Source: a virus
Taxonomy: Duplodnaviria > Heunggongvirae > Uroviricota > Caudoviricetes
Strand: one strand, 5' to 3'
IMG/VR virus record: IMGVR_UViG_2695420521_000002
Location: 35,400 to 99,399 of that record
DNA length: 64,000 bases
Shown here: piece after piece, positions 26,141 to 26,648 of the stretch
Layout of the letters: each line of letters starts with the position of its first letter
Position numbering within the stretch: position 1 is the stretch's first letter
Program-made: the position numbers and the translations under genes
The notes under the pieces: model-generated
The model's input: the letters and a program-made list of their open reading frames with translations, nothing else
The model's database searches: none
Told to the model about the DNA's origin: nothing

Positions 26141-26227
26141 TGGCGGAGAGTAATGGAATCGAACCATCATCGCTTGCGCGACGGGACGGCTTTCAAGACC
26201 GCTTGAGCACCATGCTCCCTACTCTCC
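26141..26227 (-). tRNA. tRNA-Ser-like (anticodon UGA, long variable arm)
   Basis: 87 nt; acceptor GGAGAGT/ACTCTCC, 3-bp D stem, loop CTTGAAA, long variable arm, T-arm GATGG-TTCGATT-CCATT, G73, CCA. Confidence 0.6.
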
Positions 26228-26570
26228 AGTGATTGTGGTGGTCGGTGCTGAACTCCGACACAGGGTTGTAGCAAGCCCCGCAAAGCGCGCACTACTGTAG
26301 TTGCGGCACATCAGCCTGTGCATTCACCACAATGTTGAGAACACTGGTTGTCACGCGGCAACGCAACATTTATTCGTAGATTGGGATATGACCCCGTTAC
26401 GCCAGTGTTCTCAACGTTGTAGTGCCGGTTACGGTTCCGGCCAGGCCTCTTCCTCAACGGGGTGTTCTCCATACGGACTACCGTTTATTGGTCGTTCCTG
26501 CGGTTTATGTTGTGAAGCCAGATGCTTATCTTCTGGTTGCTTCAAAGAGCTGCACTTCCTCACAACGGTA

Positions 26571-26648
26571 AGGGGACTTCGTAGGGATTCGAACCCTCTG
26601 CCAAGCTCGGCGATCTCCGACGTCGCAAAATACCCTTACCTGTTGTGC
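26571..26648 (-). other. tRNA-like fragment (T-arm GGTTCGAATCC) that does not fold into a full cloverleaf
   Basis: Canonical T-arm present but no matching 5' acceptor strand; abuts tRNA-Thr. Confidence 0.3.

Follow-up and report, generated by a model that had tools for sequence, protein, structure and literature searches.

The stretch of DNA analyzed here (the window) comprises 64,000 nucleotides (nt) of the virus record IMGVR_UViG_2695420521_000002 and belongs to a P1-family phage-plasmid, in which the P1 C4 antisense RNA is also found (47693-47778). Its tRNA region is bracketed by the genes for Dmt, a bifunctional methyltransferase (27476-29740, minus strand), and Ban, a DnaB-type helicase (23081-24451, minus strand), and our subject is the interval 26141-26648 within this region, where an earlier note made from the letters alone had described an extra serine tRNA gene, a tRNA-like fragment and a spacer with an inverted repeat. 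In reference P1 (NC_005856) the C1-controlled promoter Pban/Op72 is located at the dmt end and every tRNA is annotated on the ban strand; thus, the minus strand is the relevant one in the window. ARAGORN called four minus-strand tRNAs in the cluster, namely the canonical tRNA-Asn(GUU) (26727-26802) and tRNA-Thr(UGU) (26649-26724), which scored 72.3 and 72.9 bits, respectively, with the Rfam tRNA model RF00005, a non-canonical tRNA-Ser(UGA) (26141-26227), and a tRNA Met/Ile2(CAU) (24731-24806; RF00005, 64.7 bits) that corresponds to trnI of reference P1 and is the operon's last tRNA before ban. The sequence between the Ser and Thr genes is occupied by a series of structured RNA elements, referred to below as modules, and the identities that we assign to these elements and to the Ser gene are held with high confidence.

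The 87-nt tRNA-Ser(UGA)-like gene with a long variable arm that the earlier note had proposed was returned by ARAGORN with identical coordinates and length. Its acceptor stem reads GGAGAGU(A)/(U)ACUCUCC, with an A at position 8, a G at position 73 and an encoded CCA; the D-arm, which is tRNA-Sec-like, has a 5-bp stem (GAGCA/UGCUC) and a loop of 3 nt (4 nt in phage rV5), the anticodon loop is CUUGAAA, the T-loop is UUCGAUU, and the variable arm consists of a 6-bp stem capped by a GCAA loop. When the whole window was scanned with Rfam, no family, RF00005 included, reached its gathering threshold at 26141-26227. The best match was tRNA-Sec (RF01852) with 43.5 bits against a gathering threshold of 47, and the same model likewise fell just short of its threshold in phage rV5 (41.5 bits) and the Klebsiella phage-plasmid pJN2-26 (44.1 bits). 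IMG/VR was scanned with a pattern that kept the anticodon arm and the T-arm fixed, which yielded 89 contigs with 22 distinct variants of the gene. Across these variants the cloverleaf was 98.5% paired, with eight pairs changed on both sides, a result that 0 of 500 shuffles reproduced, and slid controls gave a pairing of 33-66%. The two-sided changes were distributed over the acceptor stem, the D-stem (two pairs) and the variable arm (three pairs), the acceptor stem occurring as GGAGAGU/ACUCUCC, GGAGGAU/AUCCUCC, GGAAAAU/AUUUUCC and GGAAGGU/ACCUUCC. Position 73 was G in 19 of the variants, A in two and U in one, and position 8 was A in all 22. A repeat scan with just the D-arm and T-arm fixed and the anticodon left free yielded 73 copies, every one of which had the CUUGAAA loop and CCA, indicating that the gene is a conserved Ser(UGA) isoacceptor and not a variable-anticodon allo-tRNA.

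With regard to its class, the acceptor branch comprises 12 bp, in which the A8-U pair and the adjoining G.U pair are invariant, so that 7/5, 8/4 and 9/3 partitions all fit. A canonical tRNA with U8 and the standard 7/5 branch was rejected on account of A8 and the absence of a gathering match to RF00005, even though ARAGORN and the Prokaryotic Genome Annotation Pipeline (PGAP) call the gene a tRNA all the same. A tRNA-Sec identity was likewise rejected, given the UGA anticodon, a branch of 12 bp as opposed to 13 bp (8/5), and the score below gathering. The presence of A8 in place of U8 favors an 8/4 geometry, and the features of the gene fit a genuine non-canonical tRNA-Ser(UGA) of the (8/4) tRNA-Ser type, which Mukai et al. 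(2017, NAR 45:2776, PMC5389517) place within the allo-tRNA group and describe from bacteriophages. The same evidence bears on whether the gene might instead be a decaying or non-translational tRNA-like RNA. Such a reading could draw on the scores under gathering for both tRNA and tRNA-Sec, on A8 and the minimal D-loop, on the remark in the D6 record 'AA not called by tRNAscan-SE' and the statement in the rV5 record that the gene was found with ARAGORN alone, on the name tRNA-OTHER used in one RefSeq record, and on the account of allo-tRNAs in PMC5389517, where some of those tested were inactive in translation. We consider it very improbable, given the strong purifying selection and the compensatory changes that four phage lineages show in the acceptor stem, the D-stem and the variable arm, the invariance of the anticodon loop and CCA, the presence of G73, G2:C71 and a long variable arm, and the PGAP label tRNA-Ser in most records. 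The host seryl-tRNA synthetase would most likely charge the tRNA, recognizing it by the long variable arm and G73, and the tRNA would supplement the decoding of UCA/UCN codons, as the canonical P1 tRNAs likewise match ACA and AUA. A comparison of codon usage showed 14.6 UCA per 1000 codons in 45 window open reading frames (ORFs) versus 8.2 per 1000 in a sample of E. coli K-12, i.e., about 1.8 times the host usage.

The earlier note gave P1 only three tRNAs and surmised an expanded or rearranged cluster, and the reference agreed on the number and on the expansion: NC_005856 has three tRNAs, and alignment showed the Ser(UGA) gene to be extra relative to it, the four-gene arrangement being absent there. 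The Ser gene and its downstream hairpin are replaced in reference P1 by an unrelated 159-nt module, which we call X, and the remaining spacer is nearly identical. This extra serine tRNA is already known: annotations of it exist for hundreds of RefSeq plasmids, for D6 and for rV5, whose record notes 'discovered using ARAGON', and it also occurs in SSU5-like phages. PGAP, which relies on tRNAscan-SE, labels the gene tRNA-Ser on P1-like RefSeq plasmids, many of which have the order tRNA-Ser / tRNA-Thr / tRNA-Asn, and one of them, pSA186_4, is identical to the window in layout, down to the SPFH protein gene discussed below. Among 5,426 complete E. coli genomes the Ser gene was present in 330, with plasmids accounting for 333 of its 335 places, and 647 had the Thr/Asn pair, from which we estimate that about half of such elements have the Ser gene. 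No copy was found in the species-representative genomes searched. Two genes missing from existing records were seen in passing. Klebsiella phage pJN2-26 (MZ779062) has an unannotated Ser(UGA)-like gene at 1410-1496 (minus strand), 147 nt downstream of tRNA-Asn, where it follows a degenerate piece resembling module A and a copy of hairpin B (both described below). In rV5 (DQ832317) an unannotated 99-nt tRNA-like gene lies between the Ser-like and Thr genes (1377-1475, minus strand); it scores 35.5 bits with RF00005, above gathering, and ARAGORN reports it as 'tRNA-???' with a 4-base anticodon.

Next to tRNA-Thr, the earlier note had pointed to a canonical T-arm that lacked a matching acceptor stem. 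The T-arm, AGGGTTCGAATCCCT at 26583-26597, is indeed canonical, and no 7-bp acceptor ending in CCA accompanies it; a partner stem does exist, however, in the form of a 21-bp closing stem on the minus strand. What had been taken for a tRNA-like fragment is no broken tRNA; it forms the tip of an RNA hairpin that is conserved and covaries, here called module A (26560-26647, minus strand). The module is supported by its fold, by covariation and by a covariance-model self-match of 105 bits. The closing stem is built of 6 + 15 bp (CACAAC.GGUAAGGGUAUUUUG / CGAAGUCCCCUUACC.GUUGUG) and encloses a core composed of a D-like hairpin (CGA-CGUCGGAGA-UCG), a 3-bp mini-stem and the T-arm, with neither an anticodon arm nor CCA. 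A pattern scan for module A gave 29 distinct flanked variants, of which 15 representatives were used for covariation. The closing stem was 92.7% paired in these, with 10 pairs changed on both sides, phages that lack tRNAs included, and the structure as a whole was 94.2% paired, its covariation score being reached by 0 of 500 shuffles. Given that U.G pairs are fixed in 14 of the 15 variants, and that the opposite strand would have A.C mismatches at these places, the constraint on module A acts on the minus-strand RNA. Module A was also detected by blastn in podovirus BUCT554 at 85% identity, with no tRNA in the 3-kb locus examined.

The spacer itself had been credited with a 17-bp imperfect inverted repeat. 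The repeat exists and is longer than first described, its 23-nt arms (26325-26347/26402-26424) being 91% complementary, and it does not stand alone, since it forms one paralog of the module-A family. This paralog, module D (26325-26424, minus strand), is closed by a stem of 23 bp and branches at a three-way junction into a T-arm-like hairpin (GGGGUCAUAUCCC) and one further hairpin, with a minimum free energy (MFE) of -49.1 kcal/mol and z = -6.5 (fold z-scores here and below were taken against dinucleotide shuffles). We collected 59 distinct D-type variants, which fall into three subfamilies (D, X and a third type) with unrelated arm sequences, the long stem being kept in all of them; in 50 of the 59 the minus-strand RNA exceeded its complement in stability (mean 4.9 kcal/mol). 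Directly 3′ of the Ser gene lies module F (26025-26142, minus strand; MFE -50 kcal/mol, z = -5.7), in which 35-nt arms with 80% complementarity close a further three-way junction. The 3′ arm of module F holds UGCUCUUACC-AUUGCGGUG-AAUGC and repeats the 3′ arm of D directly; in D6 and rV5, too, the module accompanies the Ser gene. An additional long-hairpin paralog is located upstream of tRNA-Asn (27006-27086, minus strand), with arms CAUAACAGGCAAGGGCGC ... GCGUCCUUACCUGUUACG around the T-loop-like CUGGUUCGAUUAACCAG. The covariance model of module A recovered D with E ~0.002 and the 27006-27086 paralog with 18.1 bits (E ~0.0025), and module F weakly (E ~0.47), and it gave no match with E < 0.3 outside the leader within 20000-32000. 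For modules A-F, nothing was found in Rfam beyond generic hairpin and miRNA noise, either with E up to 1 over 24500-27500 or at gathering over the whole window. The RNA modules are thus absent from Rfam, and apparently undescribed. In the same leader upstream of tRNA-Asn (26870-27100) we also observed a hairpin, GUAACGGGUAUAUCCCGU, near 26940-26960 (minus strand), that resembles the core of D and X.

The modules just described are separated by smaller minus-strand units. Hairpin B (26505-26566; z = -2.2) pairs GUUGUGAGG...CUUCACAAC around an inner CCAGA...UCUGG hairpin, and compensatory changes could be read off the alignment in phage Sasha and pJN2-26 (GUUGUGGUG/CACCACAAC in Sasha). Segment C (26425-26504; z = +0.76) is a conserved linker that moves as a unit in arrays. 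Segment E (26228-26324; z = +0.66), between module D and the Ser gene, ends in a hairpin GUCGG...CCGAC followed by CACCACAAU; in other phages the corresponding hairpin, also upstream of the Ser gene, varies in a compensatory way (GCCGG/CCGGC), and the segment is duplicated or shuffled in other arrays. Neither C nor E gives a fold signal, and both were therefore rejected as structures in their own right. Module G (25912-26031), which as the final non-coding unit precedes the operon's first ORF, resembles STnc100 (RF02076, 38.7 bits, below the gathering threshold of 47) and is followed by a U-run in the window and by none in reference P1. It may be a small RNA unit that ends the non-coding leader.

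Similar clusters were found in about 90 viral contigs, with the general order (Asn or Arg)-(Tyr)-Thr, spacer, Ser, Met/Ile2 and a Thr-Ser spacer of 195-705 nt. More than 40 module architectures were distinguished, examples being 'B SER', 'G SER', 'D E..E X SER' and 'A E..B C D E SER F G..G'. The hosts of the module family are otherwise unrelated enterobacterial phages, namely P1-like phages, D6, SSU5-like and rV5-like phages, a Sashavirus, a Uetakevirus and phiNP. Many unrelated cores are trailed by a shared junction of about 24 nt, A(G/A)UGCUCUUACCGUUGUGGUGAAUGC, also given as A(G/A)TGCTCTTACCGTTGTGGTGAATGC. Three IMG/VR sequences (L117, L119 and L103) are chimeras in which the 5′ arm of D and the 3′ arm of X are joined in the core GUAACGGGKUCAUAUCCCAAUCUAC; they fold poorly, at about -18 kcal/mol compared with -35 to -48 kcal/mol for intact modules, and appear to be products of recombination via the shared core. 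A fourth junction motif in the window, at 21011 (plus strand), falls in AT-rich DNA inside a 387-aa ORF and was discarded as a chance match. These comparisons show the modules to be conserved as minus-strand RNA, paralogous and cassette-like, having been shuffled, duplicated and exchanged between phages.

This mobility also fits the view that the modules are DNA-level repeats, either like miniature inverted-repeat transposable elements (MITEs) or acting as recombination linkers, which would have no RNA function and would persist by cassette exchange or spread. The combinatorial, duplicated and chimeric arrangements, the conserved junction of ~24 bp at module ends, and the breakpoints between P1 and the window, which lie at CACCACAAT and within the shared 3′ arm, are all in line with it, as is the fact that the adjoining tciABC block is a known hypervariable region (PMC9603915). 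The arms, on the other hand, change by compensation and do not follow a single terminal-repeat consensus, and they differ between subfamilies; in addition, their imperfect pairs are mainly G.U on one strand, the strand that is the more stable in 50 of 59 variants, and all module copies are oriented as the tRNAs are. Compensation together with the G.U strand asymmetry indicates selection on RNA. We therefore rejected a MITE-like element as such and regard a purely DNA-level explanation as quite unlikely.

Two further properties of the spacer claimed at first, a length of about 330 bp and freedom from ORFs, did not hold, as the Ser-Thr spacer measures 421 nt and a 125-aa plus-strand ORF with a TTG start (26301-26678) matches the position of 'plp' of P1. 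In NC_005856 two genes, upl and plp, are annotated on the opposite strand over the stretch homologous to the RNA modules, and plp (2851-3228) overlaps trnT (3199-3274) by 30 nt. That the spacer encodes Upl and Plp on its plus strand has in its favor this annotation and the retention of an ORF of plp length in the window. The overlap of plp with a tRNA gene on the other strand speaks against coding, however, and the plp-like ORF has no Pfam match, PGAP places no coding sequence (CDS) in the spacer of the RefSeq plasmids, the upl frame is destroyed in the window by the Ser cassette, module order among relatives is too variable for any conserved ORF, and the substitutions are of the RNA-stem type. 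Given the lack of Pfam and PGAP support, the loss of upl, the unconserved order and the RNA-type substitutions, the upl and plp CDSs are probably annotation artefacts, and we find a protein-coding spacer scarcely credible.

Given the tRNA-like core of module A, we considered whether the modules, A above all, are trans-acting tRNA mimics, i.e., Y-RNA-like or decoy small RNAs directed at Ro60/Rsr, RNase P, tRNA-modifying enzymes, anticodon nucleases or other tRNA-targeting defence toxins. The combination of a long closing stem, a GG-containing D-like hairpin and a UUCGAAU T-loop is the architecture of YrlA Y RNAs, Rfam gives a weak match to mascRNA, which is itself tRNA-like (E 0.17), and module A is retained in phages without tRNAs. 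Bacterial YrlA Y RNAs are known to occur in phages, and those of Deinococcus share a transcript with a tRNA (Chen et al., 2014, PMC4201824). Against this, the YrlA model (RF02553) has no match to 26560-26647 at E up to 1, its one match spanning the Thr and Asn tRNAs; the Ro-binding motif GNCGAAN0-1G is absent from the 5′ strand of module A in all 15 variants, and the similar ACGAAG of the 3′ strand gives way to ACGCAG, ACCCAG or ACUCAG in other variants. No TROVE/Ro60 domain was detected in the 10 window ORFs of at least 400 aa, the neighbors being ban, the SPFH protein and dmt, and membership of module A in the Y RNAs was rejected on these grounds, that is, for want of a model match, of the Ro-binding motif and of rsr among the ORFs of that size. 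Furthermore, the canonical T-loop is found in A alone, with D, X and F lacking it, and its restriction to A, together with its loss from degenerate copies of A, weakens explanations based on tRNA mimicry. Taken together, the evidence makes trans-acting mimics unlikely.

Transcription of the region raises a separate matter. A strong intrinsic terminator, GCCCAUCUUCGGGUGGGCG followed by U8, is located at 27295-27276 on the minus strand, in a dicF-like region between Pban and the tRNA cluster. One explanation of the shared junction would be that it is a boxA/nut-like site recruiting Nus factors, which would allow RNA polymerase to traverse the untranslated leader. The junction consensus UGCUCUUACC includes GCUCUUAC, the lambda nutR boxA core, and the boxA-type 8-mer occurs in module F and at many junctions; the rrn boxA UGCUCUUUAACAA, which is near GCUCUUAC, was confirmed in the sequence of an rrn operon. 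The leader is long, is not translated and has a terminator within it. The motif is not significantly enriched, however, with two occurrences of the boxA-like TGCTCTTWMC in 64 kb versus 0.56 expected (8 of 100 shuffles reach two), and in the long stems it is taken up in the pairing of the 3′ arm. Non-boxA versions, ACCCUUACC and GUUCUCAAC, are found in P1-type module A and in module D, every junction copy lies downstream of the terminator, and modules A-F have no similarity to the rrn leader and spacer beyond that of shuffles. In our estimation a boxA/nut-like site has little chance of being the right explanation. Mimicry of an rrn operon was examined as a related candidate: GUUGUGAGG and CUAAGCG.AC.CGG resemble the 5′ flank of 23S rRNA, and the sequences were confirmed in rrnH. 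Gapped local alignment of A-F compared with 200 dinucleotide shuffles gave z-scores of -1.1 to +0.7, and the candidate was rejected; the stretch J+G was marginal against rrnH, with a score matched by 9 of 200 shuffles.

Together, these data lead us to favor, with moderate confidence, the explanation that the C1-repressed ban operon has a long leader, untranslated and bearing tRNAs, and that the interval is a part of it, made as a minus-strand transcript and carrying a Ser tRNA cassette and a family of RNA modules. Modules A, D, F and the 27006-27086 paralog are long imperfect hairpins (21-35 bp) that close small multi-helix cores, the core of A being tRNA-like. Within the polycistronic precursor the long stems may act as processing, punctuation and insulating hairpins; RNase III-type cleavage would part the tRNAs, small RNAs and downstream mRNA from one another, and the T-loop element could add recognition by RNase P or tRNA enzymes. 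Recombination of tRNA and module cassettes would draw on the homology that the shared junction and cores offer in the DNA. We put forward the processing role of the hairpins only tentatively.

Several points count against this explanation or limit how much of it the numbers can carry. The terminator at 27295-27276 stands ahead of the tRNAs on the same strand and raises the question of the route by which transcription would enter the region. The first Ser pattern fixed the anticodon arm and T-arm, so that their invariance in that sample is uninformative; likewise, the D-like and T hairpins of module A were fixed by its pattern, which leaves the stem alone as independent support. Many of the contigs sampled are close relatives, and the shuffle controls accordingly overstate significance. 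As position 8 and its partner never vary, the 8/4 and 7/5 partitions of the Ser tRNA describe the sequences equally well. The enrichment of UCA is below that of ACA and AUA, which are 2.8 and 3.3 times higher, respectively, in the window ORFs than in the K-12 sample. The T-loop is canonical in module A only, D and X having UUCAUAU or GUCAUAU, and the degenerate A-like copies in Sasha and pJN2-26 are without it. Finally, each functional step proposed for the hairpins is an inference.

A bolder version of the proposal would be that A, D, F, X and the 27006-27086 hairpin constitute an undescribed mobile family of long-stem RNAs that have T-loop or tRNA-like cores and a function of their own, upl and plp then being artefacts. 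This function might be RNase P/RNase III 'punctuation' of accessory-gene leaders, or titration, by tRNA mimics, of a host factor that binds or targets tRNAs. We regard this joint claim, its function included, as possible but doubtful.

Other genes of the window were noted in passing. Where reference P1 has tciA/tciB/tciC, the window has, at 24834-25878 (minus strand), a 78-aa membrane ORF that DUF4229 matches weakly and, after it, a gene for an SPFH/Band_7 lipoprotein of 275 aa. The tciABC block, which adjoins the leader, is one of eight hypervariable regions of P1-like elements (PMC9603915). At 5511-9146 (minus strand) there is a 1210-aa ORF resembling inverse autotransporters and invasins (IAT_beta, E 6e-109, with Big_1 and Invasin_D3 repeats), an adhesin-type cargo unexpected for a P1-like element. 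An AT-rich stretch at 20572-21735 (plus strand) contains the 387-aa ORF mentioned above, which has the look of a membrane protein and a composition unlike its surroundings, and is probably acquired cargo.

As for what these findings mean, the extra Ser tRNA is by itself of small import, being already annotated and of a described structural class; the original interpretation of the interval is supported in part. Of wider consequence is that the widely copied annotation of reference P1 sets two protein genes over what the comparisons indicate to be structured RNAs of the other strand. The tRNA region of P1-like, D6, SSU5-like and rV5-like phages is a cassette array, and provides a handle on changing tRNA repertoires. 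Should the modules direct processing or mimic tRNAs, they would add a new class of RNA element, one that is easy to test, to one of the most thoroughly studied model phages.

The elements can be compared with several known systems. The Ser gene shares with the (8/4) tRNA-Ser and other allo-tRNAs, as described in PMC5389517, the near-miss to tRNA-Sec, the long variable arm, the long D-stem with a tiny loop, the 12-bp acceptor branch, G73, a serine anticodon, location in a phage tRNA cluster and detection by ARAGORN. It differs in that its branch can equally be read as 7/5 and, unlike most allo-tRNAs, in its constant anticodon (UGA in 73 of 73 copies), and the P1-like, D6, SSU5-like and rV5-like lineages are different from those named for the class in the passages considered. 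With the canonical P1 tRNAs (trnA for Asn, trnT for Thr and trnI for Ile2) it has in common the strand, the operon leader and a presumed codon-supplementing role, whereas its absence from reference P1, its non-canonical cloverleaf, its sub-gathering score and its position in an exchangeable cassette with hairpin F set it apart. Module A is similar to the bacterial Y RNAs (YrlA) in its end-to-end long stem, its tRNA-like D and T arms and the lack of a real anticodon arm; in contrast to them it shows no YrlA model match and no GNCGAA motif, has no rsr among the window ORFs of at least 400 aa, and belongs with paralogs (D, X and F) that lack a canonical T-loop. Module G aligns with the phage-borne STnc100/PasD prophage small RNAs (RF02076; Zhu, Shabalina and Storz, 2026, preprint), sharing the closing stem UGCGGUG/CACCGCA and the GGUGAAU start, a motif that also ends the module junction; it differs in scoring below gathering and in covering only model positions 31-147 of 206, and modules A, D and F are unmatched by that model. 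The modules as a whole also recall a broader type of element. Long-hairpin repeats that are processed in RNA include the Correia/NEMIS elements of Neisseria, the ERIC elements of enterobacteria and the RNase III stems that flank rRNAs. The modules resemble these elements in their size of about 90-120 nt, their long imperfect inverted arms, their presumed co-transcription with neighboring genes and their plausibility as RNase III substrates. No sequence similarity of the modules to rrn flanks was found, and they are distinguished from these elements by arms that covary and do not follow a single consensus, by tRNA-like hairpin cores, and by the confinement of their copies to the leaders of phage tRNA and accessory genes.

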